Assembly (NCBI GenBank): GCA_011051565.1
Contig: DRKX01000089.1
Coordinates: 4,808-68,807 of the forward strand
Direction of reading: 5' to 3'
From: Nitrospirota bacterium
GTDB taxonomy: Bacteria > Nitrospirota > Thermodesulfovibrionia > Thermodesulfovibrionales > JdFR-85
DNA: 64,000 bases
Below the pieces are notes generated by a model. The model did no database searches, had not been told where the DNA came from, and saw only the letters and a program-made list of their open reading frames with translations. The position numbers and the translations under genes were made by a program. Positions 37,281 through 64,000 of the stretch are shown here, in pieces. Each line of letters starts with the position of its first letter. Positions within the stretch are counted from its first letter, which is position 1.

Positions 37281-37286
37281 CGGCAT

Positions 37287-38111: not shown

Positions 38112-39099
38112 CACGGTGCTGCTCGTAGATGACGAGGAGTATGTCCTCAACTCGATAGAGCGGCTGCTCGTCTGCTGTGACGGCATCAGGGTGCTGAAGG
38201 CCGCTTCTGCAGACGAGGCCCTCGGTCTCATTGCTGAGGAGGCAGTGGCCGTGATCGTATCCGACAACATGATGCCCGGCATGAAGGGCATAGAGCTCCT
38301 CACGAGGGTCAGGGGGATATCTCCCGACACGGTGAGGATACTCCTTACCGCCTATGCCGACTTTCCGACGGCCATGGAGGCGATAAACAGCGGAGAGGTC
38401 TTCAGGTTCATCGTCAAGCCCTGGGACGACGACCTCCTGGTCAGGACCGTGCAGGAGGCCGCCGGCCGCCACCATATCATCCGCTCCCTCAGGGTGAAGG
38501 ACAAGGCCATACTGCTTTCGCTCGCCCAGACGATTGAGCTCAAGGACCCCTACACGAGGGGACACTGCGAGAGGGTTGCGGCCTATGCCCTCATGATAGC
38601 GGAAGCCCTCGGCCTCCCCGAGGCCTCGAAGAAAGACATAAAATACGGCAGCTGGCTTCACGACTGCGGTAAGGTGGGCGTTCCGGAGCAGATACTCAAC
38701 AACAGCTGTGGTATCGACGAGGAGGACTTCGAGGTCATAAAGCGACATCCAGTCTGGGGGGCTGACGTGGCGCGGCAGGCCCAGATGTCAGAGGTGATCG
38801 TGAATATCATACTCTACCACCACGAGAAGTTCAACGGCACGGGCTATCCGTCCGCGATCGAGGGGGAGAGCATCCCTGTAGAGGCAAGGATAGTGGCCGT
38901 AGCCGACGTCTTCGACGCCCTGACGACCGACAGGCCTTACAGGGCCGGGCTCAGCGAGGAGGAGGCGGTCGAGATAATCGCATCCTTGAGGGGTGAGAGC
39001 CTCGATCCCGAGATAGTCAACGTCTTTCTCTCGGAGCTGAAGCGCCGTTCCGGAGGGGATCGGCTGGTTAAGGAGGCAGGTCTGCATGAACAGCACTGA
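38104..39099 (+). CDS. Response regulator with HD-GYP c-di-GMP phosphodiesterase domain (RpfG-like) 1
   Basis: REC motifs are VLLVDDEEYV, VSDNMMPGMKG and KPWDDDLL. HD-GYP motifs are HDCGKVGVP and HHEKFNGTGYP. ATG 38104 overlaps the previous stop by 8 nt. Confidence 0.85.
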   Translation: MPDTVLLVDDEEYVLNSIERLLVCCDGIRVLKAASADEALGLIAEEAVAVIVSDNMMPGMKGIELLTRVRGISPDTVRILLTAYADFPTAMEAINSGEVFRFIVKPWDDDLLVRTVQEAAGRHHIIRSLRVKDKAILLSLAQTIELKDPYTRGHCERVAAYALMIAEALGLPEASKKDIKYGSWLHDCGKVGVPEQILNNSCGIDEEDFEVIKRHPVWGADVARQAQMSEVIVNIILYHHEKFNGTGYPSAIEGESIPVEARIVAVADVFDALTTDRPYRAGLSEEEAVEIIASLRGESLDPEIVNVFLSELKRRSGGDRLVKEAGLHEQH

Positions 39100-40405: not shown

Positions 40406-40408
40406 TCC

Positions 40409-41068
40409 ATGATCGAGTTCGACAGGGAAGAGAAGAGGATGGTGCTGAAACTCGTATTCTACGGGCCGGCCCTTTCGGGCAAGACGACCAATCTCCTGAG
40501 GCTTCACGACCTCCTTGCACGCGAGGGCCGGGGGGAGTTGATGGTGCTCGATACGAGGGACGACAGGACGATCTTCTTCGATCTCCTCCCGTTCTTTCTC
40601 GTCACCCCGGGGGGACTGAAGATAAAGTTGAAGGTCTATACGGTTCCGGGCCAGGTGAAACACGATGCAACGAGGAAGGCCGTACTGCAGAGGGCGGACG
40701 GAGTGGCCTTCATCGCTGACTCCCGGCTGTCGGAGACGGCTAACAATTATTCGAGCTTCGAGAACCTCGAAAAGAACCTCGCCTTTGTCGGGATCGACAT
40801 CGAGACCGTCCCCCTCGTGATCCAGTTCAACAAGAGGGACCTCAGCGAGATCGTCCCCGAGACCGACATAGAACGCCTGTGGCGGCCCACGGGCATACCC
40901 GTCTTCATGGCCTCGGCCCTTCAGGGCTGGGGAGTAGTGGAGACCTTCGGCAGACTGGTGGAACTCACCTACGACGCCGTAGACAGAAAATGGGGCCTGC
41001 GCGAAGGATACGGACTCGAGAGGGAGGAGTTCGTTCGGCGGCTGACTCTGAGGGAGCAGGGTCGGTGA
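40409..41068 (+). CDS. MglA-type small Ras-like GTPase
   Basis: The P-loop is GPALSGKT. Switch II is TVPGQ, with Thr in place of the canonical Asp of DxxG, which is the MglA hallmark. G4 is NKRD. The start lies 3 nt after the previous stop. Confidence 0.8.
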   Translation: MIEFDREEKRMVLKLVFYGPALSGKTTNLLRLHDLLAREGRGELMVLDTRDDRTIFFDLLPFFLVTPGGLKIKLKVYTVPGQVKHDATRKAVLQRADGVAFIADSRLSETANNYSSFENLEKNLAFVGIDIETVPLVIQFNKRDLSEIVPETDIERLWRPTGIPVFMASALQGWGVVETFGRLVELTYDAVDRKWGLREGYGLEREEFVRRLTLREQGR

Positions 41069-41104
41069 GTGGACGTTCCCGGCTGCAGGAAAGGGGATGC
41101 TCGA

Positions 41105-42421
41105 ATGAATGAAGACCGTGAGGGTGCGGGCGGTATCGAGTACGTGGTCGGGGCCGAGAAGAGACTCTGCGAGATTCTCGGGGATGAAGAGATAATGCCG
41201 ATCCTGAGGAGTGCACTCCGCGCTGGGGTGTCGAGGATCGAGGTGAGGGACTCCAAGGGCAGGGTGCTCTGGGCCTGCGGTGATCCCACTGGCGGGGGAG
41301 GCCGTGCAAGGGAGGTCGCACCGCTCTGTCTCGAGGGCGAGCCTGCCGGCAGCATCATGGTCGAGATTCCCTCAAGCGGGCGACTGCGTCTCCGTGACTT
41401 CACAGGCCTGCTGAGCGAAGTGATGAACACGATGATAACCAACAACCTGAAGAGGATGCTGACGGCCGAGATACACACCACCGTGGTCGACCAGACCCAC
41501 GAGGAACTGATCGAGACGAACAGGAGGCTGCGCGCGTCCGAGTCGAGGTACCGAGAGCTCGCAGAGAGCCTCGACAGGAAGGTCCAGGAGCGTACGGAGG
41601 AGCTGAAGAGGATTCACACGAGGCTCATCCAGCAGGAGAAGGCCGCATCCATAGGGCTGCTGGCAGCGGGTGTGGCACACGAGATAAACACCCCACTCGG
41701 GTTCATATCGAGCAATCTCAACACCCTGAAGAGATACATGTCGAGATTCACCGAGATGCTGGACTTCTACCGCCGCATAGTCGGGGAGGCCGGCGACGGT
41801 GTCGCCGAGGAGGCCGCCAAGAAGTGGAGCGATCTCAAGCTCGGCTTCGTGGTAAGAGACGTCGGAGAGCTGATCAGCCAGAGCCTCGACGGAGCCGAGA
41901 GGGTGAGGAGGATCGTCGCGGACCTCAAGGGGTTTTCCCATGTCGATGACAGCAAGGAAGACGTCGTCGACCTTAACACGGAGATAGAGAGGACCTTCAG
42001 CGTGCTCGCCCACGAGATACCCGAAGACGCCGAGATCGAGAGGGACTACGGGTCGTTGCCTGGTTTTCTCTGCGATCCGGCCCTCGTCTGCCAGGTCTTC
42101 CTCAACATCATACTGAACTCCCTGCAGGCGAAGAAAGGGGGACTCAAGCTGCACGTGAGCACGAGGTTCGCCGGCGGAGACATAACGGTTGCGTTCACGG
42201 ACAACGGGCCCGGCATCCCCGATGACATCAGAGGGAGGATATTCGAGCCGTTCTTCACCACGAAGGACGTCGGCGAGGGTACGGGGCTTGGCCTGACCGT
42301 CACACGTGACATAGTGACCGCCTACGGCGGTGACATCGAGGTCGAAAGCCGGCCGGGTGCCGGCACGACCTTTCTCGTAAGGCTTCCGGCCGAGGGGGGG
42401 CGGGATGTCGAGGTACGCTGA
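41105..42421 (+). CDS. Cytoplasmic histidine kinase (HK2) with an uncharacterised ~130-aa N-terminal domain
   Basis: The H-box is [21 protein letters not shown], paralogous to HK1. HATPase_c shows NIILNSLQA, DNGPGI and GTGLGLT. ATG 41105 has RBS AAAGGGGA 7 nt upstream. GTG 41069 is the alternative start. Confidence 0.8.
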   Translation: MNEDREGAGGIEYVVGAEKRLCEILGDEEIMPILRSALRAGVSRIEVRDSKGRVLWACGDPTGGGGRAREVAPLCLEGEPAGSIMVEIPSSGRLRLRDFTGLLSEVMNTMITNNLKRMLTAEIHTTVVDQTHEELIETNRRLRASESRYRELAESLDRKVQERTEELKRIHTRLIQQEKAASIGLLAAGVAHEINTPLGFISSNLNTLKRYMSRFTEMLDFYRRIVGEAGDGVAEEAAKKWSDLKLGFVVRDVGELISQSLDGAERVRRIVADLKGFSHVDDSKEDVVDLNTEIERTFSVLAHEIPEDAEIERDYGSLPGFLCDPALVCQVFLNIILNSLQAKKGGLKLHVSTRFAGGDITVAFTDNGPGIPDDIRGRIFEPFFTTKDVGEGTGLGLTVTRDIVTAYGGDIEVESRPGAGTTFLVRLPAEGGRDVEVR

Positions 42422-44816
42422 GCTCTTCAGGTCCATAACCCCGGGTGCGACCGCCGCGGTCGAGTCTCTGCAGGAGGGCGGAGGCCCCGCCGAGCCGTTC
42501 ACGCTCCTCTTTCTCGACGACGAGCATGAAGTGCTCAACGCCCTGAAGAGGATATTCATAGATGAGAACTACCGGATACTCACGGCCGCATCCGTTGGCG
42601 AGGCCTTGGATTTGATGGAGCACGAGAGGGTCCACCTCGTCATATCCGACTACAGGATGCCGAAGGTGACCGGCGCCGAGTTCCTCAGGGAGGTGAAGCA
42701 GAGGTGGCCTGATACGATCAGGATAATGCTCACGGGACATGCGGACATACAGTCCATAATGGGGGCGGTGAACGACGGGGCGGTCTACAAGTTCATAACG
42801 AAGCCGTGGAACGACGAGGACCTGAGGCTCACCGTCAGTCTTGCGCTCCAGCAGTACGTGCTCATACAGGAGAACCGGAAGCTAAAGGAACTGACGAGGG
42901 AGCAGCAGCGCAGGATCAGGAACTACTCCGCCCACTTCAACGAAAACCGCGGGATCATGGGTGATATACTCGTCAAGTCGGGGACGATAAGCAGGGCCGA
43001 CCTGGATACGGCCTTGAAGGAGAAGGGGGATCAGGAATTCCTGGGCGAGACACTCGTGAGGCTCGGCCTGACCACTGAATCGAAGATAGTGAGGGCACTG
43101 CAGGAGCACCTGAACCTCGATTACATAGACCTGAGGGAGGTGAACCTGAGCCCGGCCGTAGTGGGCTTCCTGCCGCGTGACCTCTGCGAGAGGAACAGGC
43201 TGATCCCGGTGAAGGTGGCGGACAAGCAGATCACGATAGCCATGGCCGATCCATCCGATATATTCAAGTGCGACAACATAGCCCTGATGACCGGTCTCAA
43301 GGTGGTGCCGCTCGTTGCAAAGAGCTCGGACATCATGTTCCACTTGGGGAGGGCATACGACGGCTCCTCTGAGGCTGCCTTTGAAATGGACGGTATCTCA
43401 GCCATAGAGCCTCTCGATGAGATCGACATCATAATTGAGGAAGAGGATCCGGAGTTCAACGTGCAGGAGCTGATAGGCTCATCAGAGGTGCCGCCGGTCA
43501 TAAGGATTGTGAATGCGATAATCTCCGAGGCGATCCGCTACAAGGCGAGTGACATACACGTGGAGCCCAAGACGAAGTATTCCGTGATACGCTACCGGAT
43601 AGACGGCATGCTCCACAACAAGATCAAGATACCCTCCGACCTCCATCCCGCGACCATATCGAGGATAAAGATACTCGCCAAGATGGACATCGCCGAGAGG
43701 CGCAAGCCCCAGGACGGCCGGATAACGGTCAAGTCAGGCACGAGGATCGTGGACATAAGGGTCTCCACGATGCCGACCATCAACGGCGAGAAGGTGGTCA
43801 TGAGGATACTCGACAAGAATGCAGCCATCAAGCGGCTGAACGAACTCGGCGTCTCGCCCGCCGACCTCGACAAGCTCTATGCCCTTATCAAGAAGCCCCA
43901 GGGCATAATCATCTCCACTGGCCCCACAGGCAGCGGGAAGACGACGATGCTCTACTCCATACTGAACGAGATGCTCCAGAGCACGAAGAACTTCGAGACC
44001 ATCGAGGACCCTGTGGAGTATTTTCTCGAGGAGGCGAGCCAGGTCTATGTGAGGGAGAAGATAGGGCTCTCCTTTGCCTCTGTACTGCGGGCCACCCTGA
44101 GGCAGGACCCCGACGTCATCCTCGTCGGAGAGATACGTGACCACGAGACCGCCGACGTGGCGTTCAAGGCCGCCCTGACAGGTCACATGGTGCTGACGAC
44201 CCTCCATACGAACAATTCTGTGGCTTCAGTGACGCGGCTTATAGACATGGGCGTCAAACCCTACCTCATAGCTTCTGCCCTCGAGGGCATACTCGCGCAG
44301 AGGCTCGTCCGGAAGGTCTGCAGGTACTGCAGGAGGGAGGCCCCGCCGGACAGGGATTTGATGAGGCTGCTCAAGATACCTCCGGACTCCCTCGGTGACA
44401 GGACGTTCAGGGGGACCGGATGCGAGAGGTGCAATCACACGGGTTATCTCGGGAGGACCGGGATATTCGAGGTCTTCATCATGAACGACGACTTCAGGCA
44501 CTTCATTAGCAGTGCGTACAAGGAGGCGGAACTCCTGAACATGGCCCGCTCAGCGGGGATGAAGACCCTCATGGAAGACGGCATAGACAAGGTGAGGCAG
44601 GGAGAGACCACGCTCGATGAACTGCTTAGGGTGATAGGAACACAGACGAGACACGAACGCACGTGCGAGGAGTGCGGGAGGCTGATCGATGCAAAGTTCC
44701 TGTTCTGTCCCTACTGCGGCAGCTTCAAGCAGAACTTCTGCAGACAGTGCCGGATGCCCCTCGAGGACGACTGGCGGTTGTGCCCGTTCTGCGGCGGCGG
44801 CAGGGTCGGCCGGTGA
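42405..44816 (+). CDS. REC - T2SSE_N/MshEN-like - PilB/GspE-family hexameric ATPase - double zinc ribbon fusion protein
   Basis: REC spans about aa 33-150 (LLFLDDEHEV, ISDYRMPKVTG, KPWNDEDL). The N-terminal GspE domain carries two 24-aa MshEN-like repeats. Walker A is GPTGSGKTT. Walker B and the Asp/His boxes are DPDVILVGEIRD and TGHMVLTTLHTN. The canonical tetra-Cys motif is CRYC...CERC. An extra C-terminal segment reads CEECG..CPYCG..CRQC..CPFCG. It overlaps HK2 by 17 nt. Confidence 0.85.
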   Translation: MSRYAELFRSITPGATAAVESLQEGGGPAEPFTLLFLDDEHEVLNALKRIFIDENYRILTAASVGEALDLMEHERVHLVISDYRMPKVTGAEFLREVKQRWPDTIRIMLTGHADIQSIMGAVNDGAVYKFITKPWNDEDLRLTVSLALQQYVLIQENRKLKELTREQQRRIRNYSAHFNENRGIMGDILVKSGTISRADLDTALKEKGDQEFLGETLVRLGLTTESKIVRALQEHLNLDYIDLREVNLSPAVVGFLPRDLCERNRLIPVKVADKQITIAMADPSDIFKCDNIALMTGLKVVPLVAKSSDIMFHLGRAYDGSSEAAFEMDGISAIEPLDEIDIIIEEEDPEFNVQELIGSSEVPPVIRIVNAIISEAIRYKASDIHVEPKTKYSVIRYRIDGMLHNKIKIPSDLHPATISRIKILAKMDIAERRKPQDGRITVKSGTRIVDIRVSTMPTINGEKVVMRILDKNAAIKRLNELGVSPADLDKLYALIKKPQGIIISTGPTGSGKTTMLYSILNEMLQSTKNFETIEDPVEYFLEEASQVYVREKIGLSFASVLRATLRQDPDVILVGEIRDHETADVAFKAALTGHMVLTTLHTNNSVASVTRLIDMGVKPYLIASALEGILAQRLVRKVCRYCRREAPPDRDLMRLLKIPPDSLGDRTFRGTGCERCNHTGYLGRTGIFEVFIMNDDFRHFISSAYKEAELLNMARSAGMKTLMEDGIDKVRQGETTLDELLRVIGTQTRHERTCEECGRLIDAKFLFCPYCGSFKQNFCRQCRMPLEDDWRLCPFCGGGRVGR

Positions 44817-44873
44817 ATACATCCTGGACAAGGGGGGCTTATGTATCCAAAACAACTCAAGGAGGACGGTTTA

Positions 44874-45431
44874 ATGGAAGACTGCATACTCCTGGTGGAT
44901 GACGAACCCAACATCATATCTTCACTCAAGAGGGTCCTCATGGACGAGCAATACACTATATTCTCGGCCAACAGCGGAGCCGAGGCCCTCGATATCCTGA
45001 AGGAACAGAGGATAAAGGTGGTGATCTCCGACGAGCGCATGCCGGGCATGTCAGGGGCTGAGTTCCTCTCGATCGTGAGGAACCGGTTTCCCGGGGTCGT
45101 CAGGATCGTCCTGACGGGTCATGCGAGCATAGAGGCTGCCATGAGTGCGGTCAACAACGGGGAGATATACAGGTTCTTCACAAAGCCTTGGAACGATGTG
45201 GAACTGAAGCTCTCGATACGCTCGGCCGTCGAGAAACACGACCTCGAGGCAGAGAACAGGAGGCTCCTCAGCATAGTGAGGACCCAGGCGCTCGAGCTGA
45301 AGCTGCTCGAGAAGCGATATCCGAACATCACGAAGATCGAGCGCGACGACGACGGAAACCTGATCCTGCCCGACATCTCGGACGAGGATCTCTCCGCGAT
45401 CGTCGCCCAGTGTGAGAGGGAGTTTACATGA
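44874..45431 (+). CDS. Stand-alone response regulator (REC plus a ~70-aa C-terminal helix-rich tail)
   Basis: The start MEDCILLVDDEPNI has RBS AAGGAGGA 7 nt upstream. ATG 44841 is the alternative. REC motifs are ISDERMPGMSG and KPWNDVEL. Confidence 0.8.
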   Translation: MEDCILLVDDEPNIISSLKRVLMDEQYTIFSANSGAEALDILKEQRIKVVISDERMPGMSGAEFLSIVRNRFPGVVRIVLTGHASIEAAMSAVNNGEIYRFFTKPWNDVELKLSIRSAVEKHDLEAENRRLLSIVRTQALELKLLEKRYPNITKIERDDDGNLILPDISDEDLSAIVAQCEREFT

Positions 45432-46291
45432 GCAAGAGCCGCAACATAGAGACGTTCGTTTCAGGGGTGAAGGACCTGCCGACCCTTCCCTCCGTCGTGC
45501 TCAAGGTCAACCAGGCACTGATGGACAGCTCGGCGACCATCGACTCGGTCAGCAGCATAGTCGAGAGGGACCCGGCCCTTACAGCCAAGGTGCTCAGGTT
45601 GGCCAACTCGAGCTACTACGGGTTTTCCTCCTCCGTGGACACCCTGTCGAGGGCCGTCACCGTCCTCGGTTTCAACACCATAAGGAGTCTTGCGACCACG
45701 GTCTCCGTCTTCAAGATATTCAAGAGGGAGCCGTCGGGCTCCTTCGACATGCATGGCCTGTGGCTTCACAGCCTCGGCTGTGCGATCGCCTCGAAGGTCC
45801 TCGTCCACGCGATGGGGACTGCACTTCGAGAGAAGGCCTTCGTTTGCGGCCTGATACACGACATAGGAAAGGTCGTCATCGCGCAGAACCTTCCTGACGA
45901 GACGGCGGAGGTCCTGAGGCGCCTCGAGGATGACGGTTCCCCGGACATGGCTGAGGTGGAAGAGGAGGTCATAGGGTTCGCCCACACCGGTGTGGGTGCG
46001 CTCATAGCCGAGAGGTGGCATTTCCCGAGGGAGCTCTCCGAGGCCATCAGGCTTCACCACAGGTCCGGAGACGATCCGGACGAGGCGCATCCGGTCTTGA
46101 CGTATGCCGTGTATGCCGGAAACCAGATTGCAAAGGAGCGCGGGCTCGGCAGGAGCCAGAACAGGAAGGTCCGTGAGGTCCAGGCGTGGGTGCGGGAGAG
46201 GCTGGGCGTGTCTGTGGAGGATCTGCCGGGGCTGCTTGAGAGGACCGAGTATGACTTCAACACTGTGGTGAACTCGTGGGACCTCGCTTGA
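45428..46291 (+). CDS. HDOD-domain protein
   Basis: It has an ATGA overlap with the previous gene. Motifs are LPTLPSVVLKVNQAL, LANSSYYGF and GLIHDIGKVVI, typical of HDOD. Confidence 0.8.
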   Translation: MSKSRNIETFVSGVKDLPTLPSVVLKVNQALMDSSATIDSVSSIVERDPALTAKVLRLANSSYYGFSSSVDTLSRAVTVLGFNTIRSLATTVSVFKIFKREPSGSFDMHGLWLHSLGCAIASKVLVHAMGTALREKAFVCGLIHDIGKVVIAQNLPDETAEVLRRLEDDGSPDMAEVEEEVIGFAHTGVGALIAERWHFPRELSEAIRLHHRSGDDPDEAHPVLTYAVYAGNQIAKERGLGRSQNRKVREVQAWVRERLGVSVEDLPGLLERTEYDFNTVVNSWDLA

Positions 46292-55072: not shown

Positions 55073-56177
55073 CTACCAGGGCATAAGGAACTTCGACTGG
55101 CTGATGTTCTCCATACCGCTTCTGCTGACGCTGCTGGGGATAATGACGATATACAGTGCCACCAGGTCCGTCCTCGACGCCCAGCCGTCGTTCTACGTCA
55201 GGCAGTCTGTATGGCTGTTACTGAGTGTGACGGCCCTCTTCGTCTCTGCAAGCTTCGACTACAGAAAGCTGATGAACGTTGCTTACCATCTCTACGGCAT
55301 AGGCCTGATCCTGCTCTTTCTGACCATTGTGCTCGGACATACGGGCATGGGTGCGCAGAGATGGCTCCGGGTGGGGTCGTTCAGCTTTCAGCCCTCGGAG
55401 GTGTTCAGGATAGCCATAATCGTCGTCGTTGCCAAATACCTGAGCATAAAACGCTCTCCTCTCACCGCTTCTCCCCTTGCGATGCTCGTCCTCCTGTTCG
55501 TGCTCATCCCCTTCTTCCTCCTCTACAGGCAGCCGGACCTCGGCACAGCGATAACACTGGTCGGGATCGTGGTGCTGATGACGCTGGTGAAGGGCGTGCA
55601 GAGACGCATACTCGTCAGCCTGATCCTGGTGGTCGTCATCTCGCTTCCCTTTGCCGGGAACATCCTGTGGGAGGGCCTCAAGGAATACCAGCGCAACAGG
55701 CTGGTCGCGTTCATCGACCCGAAGGTCGATCCAAAGGGGATAGGCTACCAGATCGAGCAGTCGAAGATCACGATAGGCTCGGGCAGGTTGTTCGGCAAGG
55801 GGTACCTGAGGGGCACGCAGGGCCCGTTCCGGTTCCTCCCCGAGAAGCATACGGACTTCATATTCTCTGTCTTCTCAGAGGAGTGGGGGGCGGTGGGTTC
55901 CGTATTCGTGATCAGCCTCTACATGCTGCTGATCATCCGGGGGTACGAGACCGCCTTCTATGCAAAGGACGAGTTCGGAACACTGCTGTCGATCGGGATA
56001 AGCACGATGTTCCTCTTCTATGTCTTCATAAACATCGGCATGACCATGGGCCTGATGCCTGTTGTGGGCATACCCCTGCCCTTCTTCAGCTACGGCGGCA
56101 CCGCACTGCTTGCAAACTTCATCTGTGTGGGCCTGCTCATAAACGTGAGGATGAGGCGCTTCATACTCTTTTATTAA
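55047..56177 (+). CDS. rodA: SEDS-family peptidoglycan glycosyltransferase RodA
   Basis: A polytopic FtsW/RodA/SpoVE-family protein (PEKHTDFIFSVFSEEWG, GIPLPFFSYGGT). It lies downstream of mrdA. Confidence 0.9.
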   Translation: MLKDRLKISYQGIRNFDWLMFSIPLLLTLLGIMTIYSATRSVLDAQPSFYVRQSVWLLLSVTALFVSASFDYRKLMNVAYHLYGIGLILLFLTIVLGHTGMGAQRWLRVGSFSFQPSEVFRIAIIVVVAKYLSIKRSPLTASPLAMLVLLFVLIPFFLLYRQPDLGTAITLVGIVVLMTLVKGVQRRILVSLILVVVISLPFAGNILWEGLKEYQRNRLVAFIDPKVDPKGIGYQIEQSKITIGSGRLFGKGYLRGTQGPFRFLPEKHTDFIFSVFSEEWGAVGSVFVISLYMLLIIRGYETAFYAKDEFGTLLSIGISTMFLFYVFINIGMTMGLMPVVGIPLPFFSYGGTALLANFICVGLLINVRMRRFILFY

Positions 56178-56225
56178 GGCTCGTTTTTCTGTTATAATTA
56201 CCTTCACGTTCAAACGGATGATCAC

Positions 56226-56302
56226 GGCGGTGTAGCTCAGTTGGTAAGAGCATGCGGCTCATATCCGCAGGGTCGGGGGTTCGAATCCCTCCACCGCCAC
56301 CA
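56226..56302 (+). tRNA. tRNA with CAT anticodon (elongator Met; Ile2/lysidine type not excluded), CCA encoded
   Basis: The cloverleaf is acceptor GGCGGTG/CACCGCC, D arm GCTC-AGTTGGTAA-GAGC, anticodon arm TGCGG-CTCATAT-CCGCA and T arm GGGGG-TTCGAAT-CCCTC. G1:C72 argues against an initiator. TATAAT lies at 56193-56198 upstream. Confidence 0.9.
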
Positions 56303-56328
56303 GCCGTCGTCATTCTCTCCTTGGCCCA

Positions 56329-59300
56329 TCAGACCTGCGGACGCGCCTGCACCACATAATAGGCATTCCCTGCAAAGGCTCCCTCGATATCCTGTGGAGA
56401 GCCCATCGCGGTTTCGACGGCCGTTCCGGCATCAGCGATGCGGTTCAGTATCTCCAGCCTGAACTTCTCGTCCCAGACGAGGGGTTCATCCGTGTAATCG
56501 AGCGGCACCTCCCTGGGCGGGGCCAGCATGACGCTGTCGTAGAGGCCTGCTCCTGCGTATCCGCTGAGGTCCTCGCCGTTTGAGTCCGAGCGGAATATGA
56601 GGCCTCCACCATAGAGTCCGGTGCCCTTGTTCGGATATGAAGTGATGCGGAGGCCGGGCCGCGTCTTATTCCTGGTGAAGCCGAGGGCCCTGCCCGGGTA
56701 GTTGCCGACGAGGGTCTCACCGAGGCCGAGAACGACCTCTGCAAAGAGCTCGTCGGTGTCGCCGGTGAATGGGTTGACGGTGTGAATGACGAATGAATAC
56801 TCCGCCTCCACGACCTGTTGGACGAGCACGGCCATGTAGAGGTCCTCGTCCGGGATGCCCGCCGCCCTCCGGCTGAGATACGCCCTCTCGTTCCACTTCG
56901 ACGCCCAGACACGCTTGATGCAGGTCCAGGCCTCGTCCCATTCCGGCCATGCAAGCCCAGCCCCTTCCATGACGCTGCGGAGCCTGGCGGGGAGCTCTTC
57001 GGGGTATTCGAGCTCGAGCACGGTCTTGCGTATCTCTGCGAGTGTCTCTCCTGCATCGCGGTCGAGCCTCGAGGCCAGCTCCAGGCAGCGTTGCCTGACC
57101 CCGCTGTTGGCCTCCAGGTCGAGGACCCTTTCGAACACTCCGAAGGGCAGTGCAACCGATGCGGGCAGGCGTATCCAGTCCGGCAGCCTGCCTCGGAGCC
57201 GGGTCAGGTTGAGGGACTTGCCGCCGACCACACCCTCCCTGAAGTCCTCTTCAGAGAGGGCATAGGCAGTGAACTCAGGCCGCGACACCTTCCTGAACCC
57301 CAGCCGTATCCGTGGCGGCAGGGCCGCCTTGTCGTCTCCGGTCTCCTCGAACTCGAGGTCTCCGGAGGGGGTTACTGTGAAGCTGAGCAGCCGTCCCCTG
57401 AGAGACTTGAGGCGTTCGAGGCACTTCGAGTCGTAACAGACGGCGAAGAGGAGTCCGGCGTTGCGTGCGCGTACGGCCACGTGCGATACGAGGTCGACGG
57501 CATCCGGAGTGATGACCGCGGTCACCCCCTCGGGCGGTTCTTCGTCACCCCGCACCCTGTCTGCAACGATGACAACAGGGGTCTCGAACCTTCGGCCCTG
57601 GACGTCCCCCAGTGAGCCGACCGTCTCCACGCGTCCGACACCCCGGCCCGGGCTGATCACCTGCCAGTCGCCGAGTTCGGCCCTCCTTCGCAGTACAGGG
57701 TCGAGGCGGCGCAGGAGCATGGATAGGACGAAAGCGGGCCTGCCGCGTACGATCTCTTCGGTGAAGAGGGTGATGGACCATGGATCGGCATTGAAAGCCT
57801 TGCCGAGCAGCTCGGCCTTGGGTTGGAACATCCGGTAATAGTGGTCGATGAAGGCGCCCACAGCGCGTCCGGCCCTGTCGAGTACGGCCTTTGCATGAAG
57901 TGACCAGTCACGGCCGGGGCTGTACTCCTGCTCGAGGCGTTTCCACTCACGGAGACACCCTGAGAGGTCGGCACTGTCATGGGTGAACCGGATGTTCTCG
58001 ATCACCGGTCCGACGAGCCGGACGAGCCGTTCCGTTTCAGTGCGGCGGTGGATGTTGCGCTCAACTGCAATCCGCATGAACTCCTCGAGAGCAAGGTCGA
58101 GATACAGCAGGTCCCGCACCCTTGCATGATCCCTCTCTGCGCCGAGCATCCGGTTGATGATCCTCCGCACCCGCGTGATCACCTCTACGAGGTCCACCAC
58201 AACTGCGCCCTGGTCGTCCCTGTGTGCCAGTATGAAGTCGAGCAGCCCGCCTGTCCCGCCATCCAGCAGGTACCTTGCGGCATTGACGGCGCTTTCGAGA
58301 TCGGTGCCGGAGTGAACCGACCTCAGCAGTTTCAGGTATTCCTCGAAGTCGTGTATGAGGGCGTCCTTGAGATGGGGGACGAAGTCCGGAGGGGTCTTGA
58401 TGGGCCGGTCAAAGCTCTCGAGACGCTCCTTCGTGACACCGCCGGCCTCGAGCACCCTGTAGAATGTGTCGAGGTCTCCGTCGTTTCTGAGGAACTCCAG
58501 GTAGGCCTCACATATGACGATATCGTCAGGGGTGGCGTTGTTGTGGAGTTTCTGGTGCCATTCCTCGAGGAAGTGGCCGGATACCTCCTTTATGTGGTGC
58601 CTGTGCATTATGTGCAGTATCTCGTCGCGTATGCGCTGGCCTTCACCGCCCCTGCCGAGCGTGGTCATCATAAGGCGTATCAGCTCGCGGCTCTCGGCCT
58701 CGTCCACGTAGAGACCGGCGAGCTTCAGGGTGAGGCGGTCCTGTGCGTGGGTCAGCTCTCGCGGCTTTGTGTTATACTTCCGCTGCCATACCAGCTGCCT
58801 GATGGCTGAGAAGCGGAGCCACACGAACAGCATTGCCATGCCTTCGGCGTCGCCCCTGGCGTCGTCCAGCAGGTCGTGACAGAGGTTGAACCTGTGCATG
58901 AGCGTCCAGGAGTGGTCGCCCGTCTCGGCCCTGATGATCTCCTCTGCAAGGTGTGTGTGGGGCCTCTCCGCCTCCATGGTGACCGGCACGAAGAAGTCCC
59001 GCCCCCTCTCCTTGATCCAGCGGCCGGTGTCAGGCTGCCTCAGCACGAAGTCGATCCCAAGCGGGGCATCCTCCGGCGCGAAGTCGAGGATCAGGCGGTT
59101 CAGGCCCTCGTGCATGACGAAAGGCGTCTCTGCGGACCCGTCGCCCGGCAGGGTCGTTCCCTGTGGAAGCATGGAAGCCGGGGGCGTCAGCCACTCATTC
59201 CGTCTGTGCACCGCCACACCCCAGTGCAGTAAGAGCGGGCCGGGCATGTCCGTGACGAGGACGAGCCTGCAGGTGCCGTCGCCTCTCCTGCCGAGGGCTG

Positions 59301-59775
59301 CTGCGAGCCGGCCGTCAGGGCCGAGTCCGTAGACCCTCTGAAAAGCGACATCCAGGTCCACTGTCTCGGCCTTCAAGGCCTCCTCGGGCGAGGGGCCTTT
59401 CGGCCCGGGCAGGGAGAGCCTCACGCGGTAGTTCCTGCCGCTGTTGTTGTCCCAGCGGTCCTCCTCAGGGAAGTAGAGGACGAAGTTCAGGACCGGGAGT
59501 CTCAGGTCCCGGCCGAGCCGTAAGGTTACCCGGCTCCCGCCGTTGTCGGGCATGAAGGGTGTCTGCAGGGCGTTCCGGCCGAATGCCCTGCTGCCCTCGG
59601 GCCGGAGCGCGCTCGGTGGTATCTGCCAGGGGGCATCCTCATGCAGTGAGAGGCCCCAGTGGAGGATGCACCTCCTCCTGTCTCTCATCCGCAGCGAAAC
59701 CTCGATGCCCCTCTCCGCCTCCCGGCTCTCCACTGTCAGGGTGATTCCGCTCTTCGTCCTTATCTCTCCGGTCAT
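56329..59775 (-). CDS. Alpha-glucan,water dikinase (GWD)-like protein: tandem CBM45-like modules + central GWD region + phosphohistidine domain + PPDK_N-type nucleotide-binding domain
   Basis: There are two N-terminal repeats with an LHWG/W..PP signature (CILHWGLSLHEDAPWQIPPS and LLLHWGVAVHRRNEWLTPPA). The central motif is EEWHQKLHNNATPDDIVICEA. The phosphohistidine context is VDLVSHVAVRARNAGLLFAVCYD (His765, codon 57481-57483). The C-terminal ATP-grasp domain shows GGKSLNL, WASKWNERAYLSRR, MAVLVQQVV and GSPQDIEGA. Confidence 0.8.
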   Translation of the reverse strand: MTGEIRTKSGITLTVESREAERGIEVSLRMRDRRRCILHWGLSLHEDAPWQIPPSALRPEGSRAFGRNALQTPFMPDNGGSRVTLRLGRDLRLPVLNFVLYFPEEDRWDNNSGRNYRVRLSLPGPKGPSPEEALKAETVDLDVAFQRVYGLGPDGRLAAALGRRGDGTCRLVLVTDMPGPLLLHWGVAVHRRNEWLTPPASMLPQGTTLPGDGSAETPFVMHEGLNRLILDFAPEDAPLGIDFVLRQPDTGRWIKERGRDFFVPVTMEAERPHTHLAEEIIRAETGDHSWTLMHRFNLCHDLLDDARGDAEGMAMLFVWLRFSAIRQLVWQRKYNTKPRELTHAQDRLTLKLAGLYVDEAESRELIRLMMTTLGRGGEGQRIRDEILHIMHRHHIKEVSGHFLEEWHQKLHNNATPDDIVICEAYLEFLRNDGDLDTFYRVLEAGGVTKERLESFDRPIKTPPDFVPHLKDALIHDFEEYLKLLRSVHSGTDLESAVNAARYLLDGGTGGLLDFILAHRDDQGAVVVDLVEVITRVRRIINRMLGAERDHARVRDLLYLDLALEEFMRIAVERNIHRRTETERLVRLVGPVIENIRFTHDSADLSGCLREWKRLEQEYSPGRDWSLHAKAVLDRAGRAVGAFIDHYYRMFQPKAELLGKAFNADPWSITLFTEEIVRGRPAFVLSMLLRRLDPVLRRRAELGDWQVISPGRGVGRVETVGSLGDVQGRRFETPVVIVADRVRGDEEPPEGVTAVITPDAVDLVSHVAVRARNAGLLFAVCYDSKCLERLKSLRGRLLSFTVTPSGDLEFEETGDDKAALPPRIRLGFRKVSRPEFTAYALSEEDFREGVVGGKSLNLTRLRGRLPDWIRLPASVALPFGVFERVLDLEANSGVRQRCLELASRLDRDAGETLAEIRKTVLELEYPEELPARLRSVMEGAGLAWPEWDEAWTCIKRVWASKWNERAYLSRRAAGIPDEDLYMAVLVQQVVEAEYSFVIHTVNPFTGDTDELFAEVVLGLGETLVGNYPGRALGFTRNKTRPGLRITSYPNKGTGLYGGGLIFRSDSNGEDLSGYAGAGLYDSVMLAPPREVPLDYTDEPLVWDEKFRLEILNRIADAGTAVETAMGSPQDIEGAFAGNAYYVVQARPQV

Positions 59776-59868
59776 ACGGGTTATTATACCTCTTTTTGCA
59801 GCGGATACGTATTCGATCGCAACCTGCCGAAACCAGAGTCCGCTGCTCGGGCGGAACGGCGTTTTCTG

Positions 59869-59898
59869 TTGACGATTTCAGCGCCGTAATAATACAGT
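59869..59898 (+). promoter_or_regulatory. Putative promoter of the GH57-malQ unit
   Basis: TTGACG (59869-59874), an 18-nt spacer, then TACAGT (59893-59898). Confidence 0.3.
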
Positions 59899-59984
59899 AT
59901 ACCTAAGTGATGAGATCGTTGAGTAGAGGTTCGATGCCGTACCGTCACGCAGCGGTCGGCGTAGAGAGAGGGGATCGGTGAGGG

Positions 59985-62414
59985 ATGGAACGCTATATCT
60001 GCATACACGGGCATTTCTACCAGCCTCCGAGGGAGAACCCCTGGCTCGATAGGATCGAGGCCCAGGAGTCCGCATACCCGTACCATGACTGGAACGAGAG
60101 GGTCAATGCCGAGTGCTACGCGCCGATAGCCGTATCGAGGATACTGGACGGTGCGGGCAGGATCATCCGTATCGTGAACAACTACGAGAAGATAAACTTC
60201 AACTTCGGCCCCACGCTCCTCAGCTGGATAGAGTGGCACTCACCCCACATATACGGGAAGATCATCGAGGCCGACAGGCTGAGCCTCGCGAGCCGCTCAG
60301 GGCATGGGAACGCAATGGCCCAGGCATACAACCACATGATAATGCCCCTCGCCGGGAGGCGGGACAAGGTGACGCAGGTCGTCTGGGGCGTGCGTGACTT
60401 CAGCAGGAGGTTCGGCCGCCACCCCGAGGGCATGTGGCTTCCGGAGGCTGCAGTGGATACAGAGACGCTCGAGATAATGAGCGGACTCGGCATCCGGTTC
60501 ACGATACTATCCCCCGGGCAGGCGAGGGCCGTCAGGCCCTTGGGACGGGAAGAGTGGACCGCGGTGCCTGGCGGCTCGATAGATACCACGAGGCCCTACC
60601 TCTGCAGGCTGCCCTCAGGGGCCGAGATGAACATCATCTTCTATGACGGCGGTATCTCGCACGATGTCTCCTTCGGTGATCTGCTCAACAGCGGCGAGGC
60701 CTTTGCAAAGAGGCTCTTCGAGGCCTCGACGGCTGCGTCGGACCACTCTCCAATAATCAATATAGCCACTGATGGAGAGACCTACGGGCACCATCACAAG
60801 TTCGGTGAGATGGCCCTCGCCTATGCAGTAGACCGTATCGAGGGCGACCCTGGAGTGAGGCTGACCAACTACGCCGAGTACCTCTCCCAGAACAGCCCGG
60901 CCCACGAGGTGCAGATAGTCGAGAACACCTCGTGGAGCTGTGCGCACGGTGTCGAGAGGTGGCGCTCTGACTGCGGCTGTTCCACAGGGGGACACCCGGA
61001 GTGGAACCAGCAGTGGAGGGCCCCTCTCCGCAGGAGCCTGGACCGGCTGAGAGAGAGGCTCGCCGGTGTTTACGAGGAGTTCTCGTCCGGCCTCCTCAGG
61101 GATCCGTGGGAGGCGAGGAACGATTACATAGACGTGATACTGGAGCGGACCGAGGGTGTAAAGGATGCCTTCCTCAAGGAGCATGCCGTGAAGCCCCTGA
61201 ACAGTCTCGATCGGGTCACGGCCTTCAGGCTCCTCGAGATGCAGAGGAACGCCATGCTCATGTATACGAGCTGCGGCTGGTTCTTCGAGGACATCTCGGG
61301 GATCGAGACGGTCCAGATACTACGCTACGCCGCCCGCGCGATTGAGCTCGCCGCTGAGGTCTCGGGCCGGTGGTTCGAAGAGGAGTTCCTCTCGGGACTG
61401 TCTGAGGCGAAGAGCAATGTGGAGGAACTCGGCAACGGGGCGGACATATACAGGAGGTCGGTGCTGCCCTCGAGGGCGGACCTCAGGAGGGCCGCGGTTC
61501 ATGTTGCCATAAGCTCCTTCTTTGAAGACTATCCTGAAAAGACCGAGCTCTACTGTTACGGGGTGGAGAGGCTGGCGTATGAGAAGCTGAAACACGACGA
61601 TACAGAGGTTGCGATAGGGAGGCTCCGCGTCTCCTCCCTGATAACCGAGGAGGCGAAGAGCCTCGTGTTCGCGGCCCTTCAGCTCGGCTCGTACGACTAC
61701 AACTGCGCCGTCACCGACGATACGGGCGGAGAGTCGTACACGCGGATGAAGGAGGAGATACTCAGCGGTTTCTCCAGGGGAGACCTGCCGGGAGTGCTCA
61801 GGGTCGTGCAGCGCTGTTTCGGGCCCGAGCGGTATACGATAAAGGACCTCTTCAAGGACGAGCAGCACAGGCTGCTCGACGTCATCATGAGGGACACGAT
61901 TGATGATATCGAGAGAAACTTCGAGGGCGTGTACGAAAAGAATGCCTTCCTGATGGGCCTGCTCGAGGAGTTCGGCCACAGGATTCCCGGTGTCCTCAAG
62001 ATGGCGACAGAGATAGCCCTCAAGAGGGAGCTCCAGCAGGCCGTACAGGACAGCAGGGTGGATACGGAGAGGATCGGCTACCTGCTCAGGGAGATGAAGA
62101 GGTGGCATGTAGAGCTCGACCGGAAGTGGCTGGAGATGCTCCTGAGGCGGAGGCTCGAGGAGGAGATGCGGAGGTTCAGCGAGACCCCTGACACGGAACA
62201 CCTCGATAGGGTCAACGAGGTGCTCAGCACGGTCTTCCTCTTCCCGGTCGAGGTCAACCTCTGGACGGCTCAGAACATATACCACGAGATGCTGCTCAGT
62301 GTGTATCCCGAGGTGCTGAGGTGTGAAGAATCCGGCATCAGGGTCTGGAGAGAGGGGTTCCTGCACCTCGGCAAGAGGCTCTTCTTCAACATAGAGGAGA
62401 TTACGCGTTCCTGA
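59985..62414 (+). CDS. Glycoside hydrolase family 57 enzyme with large C-terminal helical domain (DUF3536-type architecture)
   Basis: The GH57 N-terminus is MERYICIHGHFYQPPRENPW. The nucleophile region is GMWLPEAAV. The acid/base region is ATDGETYGHH. About 400 aa of additional C-terminal sequence follow. Confidence 0.85.
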   Translation: MERYICIHGHFYQPPRENPWLDRIEAQESAYPYHDWNERVNAECYAPIAVSRILDGAGRIIRIVNNYEKINFNFGPTLLSWIEWHSPHIYGKIIEADRLSLASRSGHGNAMAQAYNHMIMPLAGRRDKVTQVVWGVRDFSRRFGRHPEGMWLPEAAVDTETLEIMSGLGIRFTILSPGQARAVRPLGREEWTAVPGGSIDTTRPYLCRLPSGAEMNIIFYDGGISHDVSFGDLLNSGEAFAKRLFEASTAASDHSPIINIATDGETYGHHHKFGEMALAYAVDRIEGDPGVRLTNYAEYLSQNSPAHEVQIVENTSWSCAHGVERWRSDCGCSTGGHPEWNQQWRAPLRRSLDRLRERLAGVYEEFSSGLLRDPWEARNDYIDVILERTEGVKDAFLKEHAVKPLNSLDRVTAFRLLEMQRNAMLMYTSCGWFFEDISGIETVQILRYAARAIELAAEVSGRWFEEEFLSGLSEAKSNVEELGNGADIYRRSVLPSRADLRRAAVHVAISSFFEDYPEKTELYCYGVERLAYEKLKHDDTEVAIGRLRVSSLITEEAKSLVFAALQLGSYDYNCAVTDDTGGESYTRMKEEILSGFSRGDLPGVLRVVQRCFGPERYTIKDLFKDEQHRLLDVIMRDTIDDIERNFEGVYEKNAFLMGLLEEFGHRIPGVLKMATEIALKRELQQAVQDSRVDTERIGYLLREMKRWHVELDRKWLEMLLRRRLEEEMRRFSETPDTEHLDRVNEVLSTVFLFPVEVNLWTAQNIYHEMLLSVYPEVLRCEESGIRVWREGFLHLGKRLFFNIEEITRS

Positions 62415-62460
62415 CCCGTTCGTGGGGATGCGCCGGAGCAAGGGGGGAGGCTTGATTTTC

Positions 62461-64000
62461 ATGGAAATCCGTAGACTCATAGATGAACTCTCTGAACTCT
62501 GCGGCTTCGTGTCCGAGTACAGTGACGCATGGGGCAGGCGCAGGGCCGTTCCGCTCGAGACCAAGGCGGCCGCCCTCAGGGCCGTTGGCTATGACACGGA
62601 AGATGCGGAAGGGTTGAGGAAGGCGATAGAGGGGCTGAGGTGGGAGAGGTACCGTGAGCTGATAGAGCCGGTGAAGGTCGTCTCGGTGAACGCCCAGCCC
62701 GGCGTGCTCCGCATCTTCATCCCGGCTGACGAGGCCGACGGGAAGACGCGGCTCAGGTGGCGTGTCACCGGAGAGGAGGAGAACGATACCGAGGTCCGAG
62801 AGGCTCTGCTCTCGGATGTCGGGCAGACGGCGGTGAAAGAGTTCGGCGGCAGGAGGGTCATAGAGGCACTGGTCGCCGACAGGGATGACCGGCCGCCGGG
62901 TTATTACGACGTAGGGGTCGAGGCCGTGCTCCAGGGGCGGACGCTGTCAGGGCGGATGCGGCTCATCGTGACGCCTGACAGGGCCTACCTGCCACCTGCG
63001 CTGGCCGGCGGGGGCAGGGCGTGGGGCCTTGGAATAAGCCTCTACGCGCTCCGCTCCGGCGGCAACCAGGGAGCGGGTGACCTCGGAGACCTCGGCCGGG
63101 TGCTCGAGTGGACGGGCGGCAGGCTCGGCGGAGACTTCGTGGCTATAAACCCGCTGCACAGCATCACCAACCGGCTGCCTGCCGGCGTGAGCCCTTACTC
63201 TCCGCTCAGCCGGCTTTATTGCAACATGATATACATCGATATCAATGCCGTTGAAGACATCCGGGACTCGAGACGGGCAAGGGCGGTCATGGAGAGTCCG
63301 GAGTTCGGTGAAGAGCTCGAAAGGCTGAGGCAGTCCGAGCTGATCGACTACGAGGGGGTTGCAAGGCTCAAGACCCGGGTGCTCAGTGCCGCGTTCCAGT
63401 ACTTTTACGAGGAACACCTCCTTCAATCAACAGCGAGGGGCCGGAGGTTCAGGGCTTTCGTCGCTTCCGAGGGCAGGGCGCTCGACGACTACGCAACCTT
63501 TATGGCCCTTCATGAAGAGTTCGGCAGCCGGGGGATCCGCCACTGGAGGGACTGGCCCCGCGGATACCACAGTCCCGACACCCATGAGGTCAGGATGTTC
63601 AGAGAGAGGCATGAACGGGCCGTTACCTACCACAAGTATATCCAGTGGCTGATCGATGAACAGCTTGCCGATGCATCAGAGAAGGCCGCAGGGGCCGGCA
63701 TGTCCATAGGCCTGTACAGGGACCTCGCAGTCGGCTCGCTCACTGAAGGCAGTGATGTGTGGGCCAACCAGGATATATTCGCCATGGACGTAGACGTCGG
63801 AGCACCACCGGACGCTTTCAGCCTGAGGGGCCAGAACTGGGGCTTCCCTCCGCTGGTCCCCTCGAGGCTCAGGGCCCAGGGCTACGAGTTCTTCATAGAG
63901 ATGATCAGGAGGAACCTCAGGCATGCCGGGGCCATCCGCATAGACCATGCCTTGGGCCTTTTCAGGCTCTTCTGGATACCGCGGGGTTTTAAGCCGCAGG
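62461..64000 (+). CDS. malQ: 4-alpha-glucanotransferase (amylomaltase, GH77) with N-terminal extension; 3' end outside the window
   Basis: The frame is open from ATG 62461 to the window end and is absent from the ORF track because it has no stop. Motifs are WGLGISLYALRS, VSPYSPLSR, GAPPDAFSLRGQNWGFPP and IRIDHALGLFRLFWIP. The RBS GGGGGGAGG lies upstream. Confidence 0.85.
   Translation, partial: MEIRRLIDELSELCGFVSEYSDAWGRRRAVPLETKAAALRAVGYDTEDAEGLRKAIEGLRWERYRELIEPVKVVSVNAQPGVLRIFIPADEADGKTRLRWRVTGEEENDTEVREALLSDVGQTAVKEFGGRRVIEALVADRDDRPPGYYDVGVEAVLQGRTLSGRMRLIVTPDRAYLPPALAGGGRAWGLGISLYALRSGGNQGAGDLGDLGRVLEWTGGRLGGDFVAINPLHSITNRLPAGVSPYSPLSRLYCNMIYIDINAVEDIRDSRRARAVMESPEFGEELERLRQSELIDYEGVARLKTRVLSAAFQYFYEEHLLQSTARGRRFRAFVASEGRALDDYATFMALHEEFGSRGIRHWRDWPRGYHSPDTHEVRMFRERHERAVTYHKYIQWLIDEQLADASEKAAGAGMSIGLYRDLAVGSLTEGSDVWANQDIFAMDVDVGAPPDAFSLRGQNWGFPPLVPSRLRAQGYEFFIEMIRRNLRHAGAIRIDHALGLFRLFWIPRGFKPQ

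Follow-up and report, generated by a model that had tools for sequence, protein, structure and literature searches.

Can a bacterium mobilise a storage glucan as plants mobilise starch, with phosphorylation of the chains by a dikinase, trimming and disproportionation? The question is raised by the last 7.7 kb of a 64,000-nucleotide stretch from a Nitrospirota bacterium (assembly GCA_011051565.1, contig DRKX01000089.1, positions 4,808 to 68,807; this whole stretch is hereafter called the window). The parent contig, 70.5 kb long, belongs to a hydrothermal-vent metagenome (ENA ERZ940665, k127_19335). Here, a gene for an alpha-glucan, water dikinase (GWD)-like protein (56329-59775, minus strand, 1148 residues) is arranged divergently from a gene for a glycoside hydrolase of family GH57 (59985-62414, plus strand, 809 residues), and their start codons are separated by 209 bp (59776-59984). 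The third gene, malQ, encodes a 4-alpha-glucanotransferase (GH77) of the Escherichia coli type. Its ATG stands at 62461 on the plus strand, 46 bp past the GH57 stop; the first 513 of its 746 codons lie inside the window (62461-64000), and the full protein of 746 residues is found on the parent contig. An earlier note on this DNA had given the same three identities and coordinates, and both are borne out by the open reading frame listing and by Pfam matches far above chance. We moderately favour the reading that the locus is a module for the turnover of a cytoplasmic storage alpha-glucan, comprised of two divergent units with one control region.

The G+C content of the glucan genes (0.61-0.62 in 60001-64000 and 0.62 in 56001-60000) is within the range of the remaining window, roughly 0.56-0.62, so the composition shows no sign of recent acquisition. 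No leader sequence precedes the first conserved motif in the N-termini of any of the three proteins, as read from their sequences, and hence the glucan substrate is probably intracellular.

The GWD-like dikinase

The dikinase was identified by Pfam domains, a structure match and an invariant histidine. Its N-terminal part consists of two CBM45-type Ig-like repeats (approximately residues 20-265) with the motifs LHWGLS...W..PP and LHWGVA...W..PP, and the Ig-like N-terminal domain of GWD1 (PF23166) was found twice (E-value 1.8e-42). The central helical domain (residues 289-699) matches the plant chloroplast GWD structures 9ha9/9qvi (E 7e-97). It is followed by the GWD1 phosphohistidine domain (residues 704-815; PF22973, E 2e-33) and by a C-terminal nucleotide-binding domain (PF01326, PPDK_N; E 9.8e-27). 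His765 of the phosphohistidine domain, in the motif SHVAVRARN (codon 57481-57483), is invariant across 16 bacterial homologues. Judging by these domains, the protein is a complete GWD1-type enzyme (EC 2.7.9.4 class) and not a generic phosphoenolpyruvate (PEP) synthase. Bacterial GWD-like enzymes would then phosphorylate glucan.

The best GWD match within a single frame ends at residue 855 (L046:9045-12486) in one of the close relatives, JAADGU01 (Nitrospirota M_MetaBat.13), where the called protein P0079 (860 residues) is without the nucleotide-binding domain. The break is a frameshift, due either to a pseudogene or to an assembly error.

The GH57 enzyme

The 809-residue protein is a glycoside hydrolase or transferase of the GH57-DUF3536 type by its Pfam domains, its motifs and a structure model. 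The GH57 domain (PF03065) spans residues 40-308 (E 1e-18; 68.1 bits against a cut-off of 21.2), and DUF3536 (PF12055) spans residues 340-623 (E 1.7e-110) and covers model positions 1-284 of 284; no Pfam match was found past residue 623. Relatives are numerous, with at least 8000 clusters at E 1e-10. The 120 matches listed each have at least 95% query coverage and at least 49% identity, and the sources named among them include Nitrospirota, Desulfobacterota, Brocadia, Chloroflexota, Acidobacteria and Geobacteraceae. In an alignment of 28 homologues, the start MERYICIHGHFYQPP agrees with the family consensus, and the motifs HGHFYQP, WLPE, TDGETYGHHH and SCGWFF are invariant, including Glu154 and Asp263. 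From established knowledge of GH57, we take Glu154 (60444-60446, in WLPE) to be the nucleophile and Asp263 (60771-60773, in TDGETYGHHH) to be the acid/base, and SCGWFF (residues 429-434) presumably is GH57 conserved region 5.

An AlphaFold (AF2) model built from the alignment has a mean predicted local distance difference test score (pLDDT) of 84 and a predicted template-modelling score (pTM) of 0.82. According to the model, the protein consists of the catalytic barrel (59985-60917, residues 1-311, assigned by model secondary structure and PF03065), a helical domain with SCGWFF that forms the first part of DUF3536 (61017-61514, residues 345-510, from model and alignment), a small beta-sandwich (61539-61718, residues 519-578, from the model and the Foldseek alignment with 4cmr) and an all-alpha C-terminal domain (61728-62411, residues 582-809). 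The last of these is marked by a conserved NLW..QNIY motif, in which W760, Q763 and N764 are invariant among the 28 homologues. The 25 best Foldseek matches of the model in the PDB are all GH57 enzymes, with probability 1.0. The best one is 4cmr, the maltose-forming amylase of Pyrococcus ST04 (597 residues; TM-score 0.57 on the target, 623 columns). The C-terminal ca. 230 residues, modelled alone, reach a pLDDT of 89.9. A search for their fold gave only matches at the level of noise, of the 14-3-3/TPR-like kind, with a best Foldseek E of 0.16 and TM-scores of at most 0.31.

The earlier note had pointed to about 400 extra C-terminal residues as a peculiarity of this protein. They turned out to be the standard DUF3536 architecture, found in at least 8000 clusters, and about 165 of them (residues 345-510) form the helical SCGWFF region. 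Going by the model, the part without a solved structural counterpart seems to be only the last ca. 230 residues, a tail typical of the family. Other solved GH57 structures, such as Thermotoga maritima AmyC (2b5d), the branching enzymes 3p0b and 5wu7 and the 4-alpha-glucanotransferase of Thermococcus litoralis (1k1w/1k1x), as well as 4cmr, share with the window protein the fold and the Glu/Asp pair. However, the identity is only 11-16%, the 230-residue C-terminal helical domain has no counterpart in any solved structure, and the specificity cannot be read from these matches.

The protein has all the features of the DUF3536-type subfamily, that is, the GH57 domain, a full DUF3536, the C-terminal extension, and the sequences HGHFY and ETYGHH. 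The fingerprints of GH57 branching enzymes are HxHLP in the first of the conserved sequence regions (CSR-I) and ELF(Y)GHW in CSR-IV (PMC11206854). Both are absent from the window protein, which carries HGHFY and ETYGHH instead; there is no BE_C domain (PF09210), and the NCBIfam model of the Thermococcales branching enzyme, NF041133, gives 24.7 bits against a cut-off of 1000. A branching enzyme acting in synthesis would, according to the earlier note, have separated this gene from the dikinase; the protein is not a branching enzyme.

Two characterised enzymes have the same architecture. PoGH57 of Pontibacter sp. SGAir0037, with HGHFY in CSR-I and ETYGHH in CSR-IV, slowly hydrolyses amylose and a dextrin with a degree of polymerisation (DP) of 18, and shortens branches of more than DP6 to DP3-4, while no branches are made (PMC11206854). 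For Amo45, from a Thermocrinis albus-like organism, a chromogenic maltotrioside was the only substrate cleaved; starch, pullulan and amylopectin were not attacked (PMC4017763). The likeness of the window protein to PoGH57 is one of published motifs. In both cases, as in the window, alpha-glucan clusters with a nearby GH77 gene are involved. On the other hand, the genes of these enzymes were reported from GlgE/TreY/TreZ clusters or as isolated genes with no dikinase, whereas the window protein belongs to a distinct subtype, described below.

MalQ

The partial MalQ encoded in the window matches Glyco_hydro_77 (PF02446, E 6.5e-81), MalQ_N (PF21226, 26.9 bits against a cut-off of 24.1) and the malQ model TIGR00217 (287.7 bits against 205.65). 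A MalQ_N beta-sandwich occupies residues 70-172, and the GH77 domain begins at residue 193. The motifs RIDH (Asp495, 63943-63945), AEDLG (Glu543) and THD (Asp596) are present, the latter two past the end of the window; from what is known of GH77, we take RIDH, EDLG and THD to be the motifs of the catalytic triad. Compared with E. coli MalQ (4s3p), the full protein gives an E-value of 2.9e-133, and the MalQ of Corynebacterium glutamicum (5b68) covers residues 2-709. Since the alignment with 5b68 starts at residue 2, the N-terminal ca. 180 residues correspond to the known MalQ_N region. The earlier note had taken these residues for a special extension, a view that does not hold, as the domain is present in the MalQ structures of both E. 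coli and Corynebacterium.

Thus, the architecture of MalQ_N and GH77 and the catalytic motifs are common to the window protein and to the maltodextrin system of E. coli. Unlike in E. coli, there is no adjacent malP, malT or transporter, and malQ is paired with a GH57 gene and faces a dikinase. GH57 and MalQ are ordinary members of known families, and what is new is their bacterial GWD context.

The control region and the GH57-malQ spacer

We aligned the divergent intergenic region (59776-59984, 209 bp) with those of loci L004, L005, L006 and L017. One conserved block abuts the GWD start, and another surrounds a promoter-like element. A consensus scan yielded a single promoter-like match in the 209 bp, a sigma-70-like candidate (59869-59898, plus strand) comprised of TTGACG, 18 nt and TACAGT. 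The sequences TTGACGATTT and GCCGTAATAATACAGT are identical among the window, L004 and L005, the latter two being close relatives with an alignable intergenic region. We infer that this site is the promoter of the GH57-malQ operon. In the window, about 80 additional nucleotides separate the promoter candidate from the GH57 start. Neither these 80 nucleotides of putative 5' untranslated region nor the whole 209 bp appear to hold a riboswitch or a structured leader, with no Rfam match at E up to 1 and, for the 5' untranslated region, a folding z-score of -0.22 against shuffled sequences. Repeats and operator-like palindromes in the region were limited to matches of 8-14 nt, which is the level expected by chance.

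The spacer between GH57 and malQ (62415-62460, plus strand, 46 bp) carries the Shine-Dalgarno-like AAGGGGGGAG at 62440-62449. Neither a promoter-like nor a terminator-like site was found in these 46 bp, which suggests that GH57 and malQ are co-transcribed. Joint control of this pair and the GWD-like gene from the shared region, that is, divergent co-regulation, is plausible, and the conserved divergent layout and promoter-like block speak for it.

Conservation of the divergent arrangement

The bacterial GWD family is large, with more than 1500 clusters in a protein search. A genome search gave 321 matching stretches in 185,579 representative species genomes, and the counts of GWD neighbours given here refer to the 80 loci kept from these. 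The loci come from Nitrospirota (Thermodesulfovibrionia), Desulfobacterota, Scalindua and other Planctomycetota, Verrucomicrobiota, Acidobacteriota and Nitrospinota.

A divergent GH57-DUF3536 gene is found upstream of GWD in 12 of the 80 loci, namely in 11 of the 58 loci whose upstream flank measures 1.5 kb or more and, additionally, in L017. In the clade with GWD identity of at least 65%, all three testable loci have it, while the other two end at a contig edge. Synteny in relatives, on which the earlier note had made its proposal depend, is therefore present, both in close relatives and at larger distances. Wherever the flank exists (eight loci), GH57 is followed by GH77. Six loci have a gap of 120-180 bp between GWD and GH57; in the others, it is 0.6-7 kb wide. 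The arrangement occurs in Nitrospirota and in the anammox genus Scalindua, with GWD identity down to about 50-54%, and in L008, L010, L011, L018, L021 and L059 the GH77 protein is of a short type (ca. 500 residues) and not the long MalQ. That the linkage has been kept at about 50% GWD identity and across a change of the GH77 type argues for selection on it. Still, the 12 linked loci do not represent 12 independent events, as the GWD-linked GH57s form two groups in a neighbour-joining tree. They probably derive from one GH57 subtype.

This subtype is recognised by six residues, E68, N109, T201, H226, G231 and N422 (ENTHGN). All six are present in the GWD-linked GH57s except L010, and at most three of the six in 80 others. 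We considered the signature as a possible mark of coupling to GWD and rejected this, as it is also found in about 30 further homologues, including proteins from GWD-free loci; it is a clade marker of a wider GH57 subfamily. Elsewhere in the GH57-DUF3536 family, the signature positions are mostly S, P, R, E or H. In an alignment with the T. litoralis enzyme, residue 109 falls on the Glu of the motif GQLEIV.

In other lineages, the neighbours of GWD include GlgA, GlgP, GlgB, a GH13-like enzyme and a GH57 branching enzyme, so that the family is tied to the metabolism of alpha-glucans in five phyla or more. The true GH57 branching enzyme of these loci is a separate protein of ca. 530 residues with BE_C. 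Superclusters such as L010 and L033 unite GH77, GH57-DUF3536, GWD, an AP_endonuc_2 gene or a fused second dikinase, the GH57 branching enzyme, GT4-DUF4912, a GH13-like gene and GlgA. The divergent core of GH57-GH77 and GWD is common to the window, L010, L018, L021, L059 and the Scalindua loci. By contrast, the window clade has the core only: on the 3' side of the dikinase, the place of AP_endonuc_2 and the biosynthetic genes is taken by rodA, PBP2, mreD, mreC and mreB, which are convergent with the dikinase gene.

Two further kinds of genes recur near GWD. A GH13/hDGE_amylase-like protein of ca. 437 residues is encoded on its 3' side in 28 of the 80 loci (e.g., L022:18089-19399), usually followed by GlgA, the GH57 branching enzyme (BE_C) and GT4-DUF4912 in a large alpha-glucan supercluster. 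A second, short GH57 (ca. 400 residues, no NCBIfam match) stands between GWD and GH57-DUF3536 in some Thermodesulfovibrionia loci (L021:8539-9738 and L059:7296-8492). Three or four other loci, L034, L036 and L043 among them, also have it in the neighbourhood of GWD.

Genomic context of GH57-DUF3536

To look at the arrangement from the side of the GH57 gene, we surveyed 80 diverse metagenome loci with GH57-DUF3536 proteins of 45-51% identity. The most frequent neighbours are TreY-like genes (32 loci), followed by CBM48-GH13 genes of the TreZ/GlgX-like kind (23), GlgB and GH77 (17 each), TreS-Mak (14) and GlgE (6). Annotated loci of Acidobacteria, Dehalococcoidia and Brocadia have the same GlgE/TreYZ/MalQ clusters, as does the Pontibacter locus (PMC11206854). 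With TreYZ and GlgE genes as its usual company and GWD at a single locus of the 80, GH57-DUF3536 is a general alpha-glucan processing enzyme, and its pairing with GWD is a special case restricted to some lineages.

Proposed mechanism

How could the three proteins act together? In the turnover module that we favour, the dikinase would use ATP to place phosphate esters on glucan chains via phospho-His765, and chains that are tightly packed or double-helical would thereby become looser. The retaining GH57-DUF3536 enzyme, with Glu154 and Asp263, would then cut the exposed alpha-1,4-linked outer chains into short malto-oligosaccharides, and MalQ would disproportionate these into glucose and longer dextrins for further catabolism. 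Since short malto-oligosaccharides are the donors that MalQ needs, the succession of GH57 and GH77 is reasonable in mechanistic terms. The order of action, the joint control and the degradative direction are all parts of the proposal, and a plant-like course of phosphorylation, trimming and disproportionation is plausible by analogy, with backing from the synteny.

The removal of the phosphate, a step for which the contig does not seem to provide, would be supplied from elsewhere in the genome. We considered two candidates among neighbouring genes. The first is a gene for a 291-residue protein of the metallo-beta-lactamase fold (L001:14761-15636), which comes after malQ in the same orientation and is the last gene of the contig. 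It resembles YtnP-type lactonases (305 bits against a cut-off of 425) and has been kept only in the two nearest relatives, L004 and L046. As a glucan phosphatase it was rejected, because it clearly falls into the lactonase group and is limited to these two relatives.

The second candidate comes from other lineages. In 61 of the 80 GWD loci, or 55 of the 69 with at least 1.5 kb downstream, GWD is directly followed by an AP_endonuc_2 gene, encoding a xylose-isomerase-like TIM barrel, which begins 10-400 bp 3' of GWD. The protein is either free (ca. 268 residues, e.g., L013:13562-14365) or forms the N-terminal part of a second dikinase of ca. 1170 residues, in which AP_endonuc_2 is fused to pHisD and PPDK_N (L033:13482-17003). 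Its best NCBIfam matches, all below threshold, are the CbiR phosphodiesterase and endonuclease IV, and this resemblance makes it a candidate phosphoesterase. Speculatively, it could be a phosphoglucan phosphatase or a partner akin to phosphoglucan, water dikinase (PWD).

Arguments against the proposal and alternative explanations

A number of observations weigh against the turnover module. Among the Pfam-called genes of the whole 70.5-kb contig there is no glgA, glgC, glgB, glgP, glgX or GH13 gene, and tblastn with representatives of GlgA, GlgB, GlgP, the GH13-like protein, the short GH57 and AP_endonuc_2 gave no matches in the window. With no glycogen synthase, branching enzyme or phosphorylase on the contig, the polymer itself is a supposition. 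Nor do the called genes of the contig include a dual-specificity phosphatase (DSP) of the SEX4/LSF2/laforin type or another obvious phosphatase. The earlier note had reported glgA/glgC, GH13, phosphorylase and glucan phosphatase genes as missing from the window, and their absence extends past position 64000 to the whole contig. The AP_endonuc_2 gene next to GWD is missing in the window clade. The characterised DUF3536 enzymes are weak on unmodified starch, and the searchable literature holds no characterised bacterial GWD and no functional or genomic-context study of one. The pairing itself is restricted from both sides, as the divergent GH57 is missing from 47 of the 58 testable GWD loci and GH57-DUF3536 is overwhelmingly GWD-free. 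Even the ENTHGN subtype occurs without the dikinase: the signature-bearing loci L085 (Desulfobulbaceae, Desulfobacterota), L171, L172 and L173 have no GWD within 10 kb, while GH77 is nearby in two of the four.

The last points bear on the alternative that survives best, namely that the adjacency reflects only a tendency of alpha-glucan genes to cluster. GH57-DUF3536 and GH77 would then be an autonomous pair that trims unphosphorylated glucan, and the dikinase would have a separate role, e.g., marking or solubilising glucan in synthesis, granule initiation or regulation. This is possible, although we find it the less convincing account. It is consistent with the existence of GWD-free GH57-DUF3536/GH77 pairs in Brocadia, Dehalococcoidia and many metagenome loci, with the GWD-free loci of the window's own GH57 subtype, and with the fact that in most lineages GWD is found beside biosynthetic genes such as GlgA, GH57 branching enzyme and GT4-DUF4912. 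On the other hand, the tight divergent pairing, at 120-180 bp in six loci, is kept even at about 50% GWD identity and despite the switch of GH77, and if joint control were not under selection, such persistence would be difficult to account for. Moreover, all GWD-linked GH57s but one fall into a single sequence subtype. If mere clustering were the case, the locus would be a common cluster of alpha-glucan genes, one of which has been little studied.

We consider it very unlikely that the GWD-like protein is not a glucan dikinase but an enzyme of the PEP synthase or rifampicin phosphotransferase type with another substrate, and that its link to GH57 and MalQ is a coincidence. At NCBI, the homologues carry just the labels PEP/pyruvate-binding domain-containing protein or phosphoenolpyruvate synthase, and residues 945-1024 weakly match the NCBIfam models of PEP synthase and rifamycin phosphotransferase. 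However, this part comprises only about 80 residues and scores far below the cut-offs, while the other ca. 1000 residues fit the GWD-specific Pfam domains and the central structure of plant GWD. In addition, alpha-glucan enzymes adjoin the gene in several phyla, and the JGI label of the homologues is alpha-glucan, water dikinase.

Finally, a biosynthetic GH57, be it a branching enzyme or a glucan-building transferase in a cluster that makes phosphorylated glucan, is highly improbable: GH57 does include branching enzymes, some of them in GWD loci of other lineages, the window protein weakly matches one such model, and the authors of the PoGH57 study took their enzyme for a 4-alpha-glucanotransferase densifying glycogen, but PoGH57 formed no new branches (PMC11206854), the branching enzymes of GWD loci are the different BE_C protein, and HxHLP, ELF(Y)GHW and BE_C are all lacking here.

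Comparison with plant starch degradation and implications

The closest parallel to the proposed turnover module is the degradation of transitory starch in plants and algae, which involves the dikinases GWD1 and PWD, the cleaving enzymes BAM, AMY3 and ISA3, the disproportionating enzymes DPE1 and DPE2 and the phosphatases SEX4 and LSF2. The window dikinase shares the four-part architecture and the invariant His of GWD1, and the window GH77 is homologous to DPE. In the proposed logic, an enzyme cleaving alpha-1,4 bonds likewise acts between the dikinase and GH77, although here it belongs to GH57, and not to GH14 or GH13. The plant route also has PWD and a DSP phosphatase, neither of which is encoded on the 70.5-kb contig. 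Lastly, the bacterial genes are clustered and divergent, and the bacterial system is a predicted one.

Glucan phosphorylation by GWD counts as a hallmark of eukaryotes that accumulate starch. GWD has been said to occur only in starch accumulators; the existence of bacterial copies was noted in one figure legend, as possible lateral transfers (PMC6260743). The phosphorylation of bacterial glycogen has been posed as an open question (PMC13011383), and recent reviews likewise leave glucan phosphorylation in bacteria undecided. A full-length bacterial GWD linked to GH57 and GH77 is a concrete, testable unit of three genes. If glucan phosphorylation takes place, bacteria would mobilise storage glucan via phosphate esters, GH57s with DUF3536 would gain a physiological substrate, and the finding would be relevant to how the starch-degradation pathway of plants arose.

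A bolder extension, which we offer tentatively and regard as unlikely, is that some anaerobes (Nitrospirota of the Thermodesulfovibrionia type, Scalindua, Desulfobacterota and Verrucomicrobia) have a genuine GWD-dependent cycle of storage-glucan phosphorylation with its own accessory enzymes. In such a cycle, the GH57-DUF3536 subtype, acting on phosphorylated chains, would play the role of beta- or alpha-amylase and GH77 that of DPE. The phosphatase would be of a non-DSP kind, for which the endonuclease IV/CbiR-like AP_endonuc_2 protein would be the candidate in most lineages. Phosphorylation of the starch type would then not be an invention of plastid-bearing eukaryotes, but either an older bacterial trait or one exchanged between bacteria and eukaryotes.

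Other genes in the window

A dense signalling block at about 34800-46000 (plus strand) encodes several receiver-HD-GYP (HD_5) proteins alongside a PAS histidine kinase, a receiver-MshEN-T2SSE ATPase (42405-44816) and an HDOD protein, with a weak PilZ match a few kb beyond. This composition suggests a control module linked to cyclic di-GMP, with no visible tie to the glucan genes. The window also carries a gene for an archaeal-type fructose-1,6-bisphosphate aldolase/phosphatase (10620-11717, plus strand, 365 residues, Pfam FBPase_3). It indicates gluconeogenic capacity, consistent with the building of a storage glucan in a thermophilic chemolithotroph.

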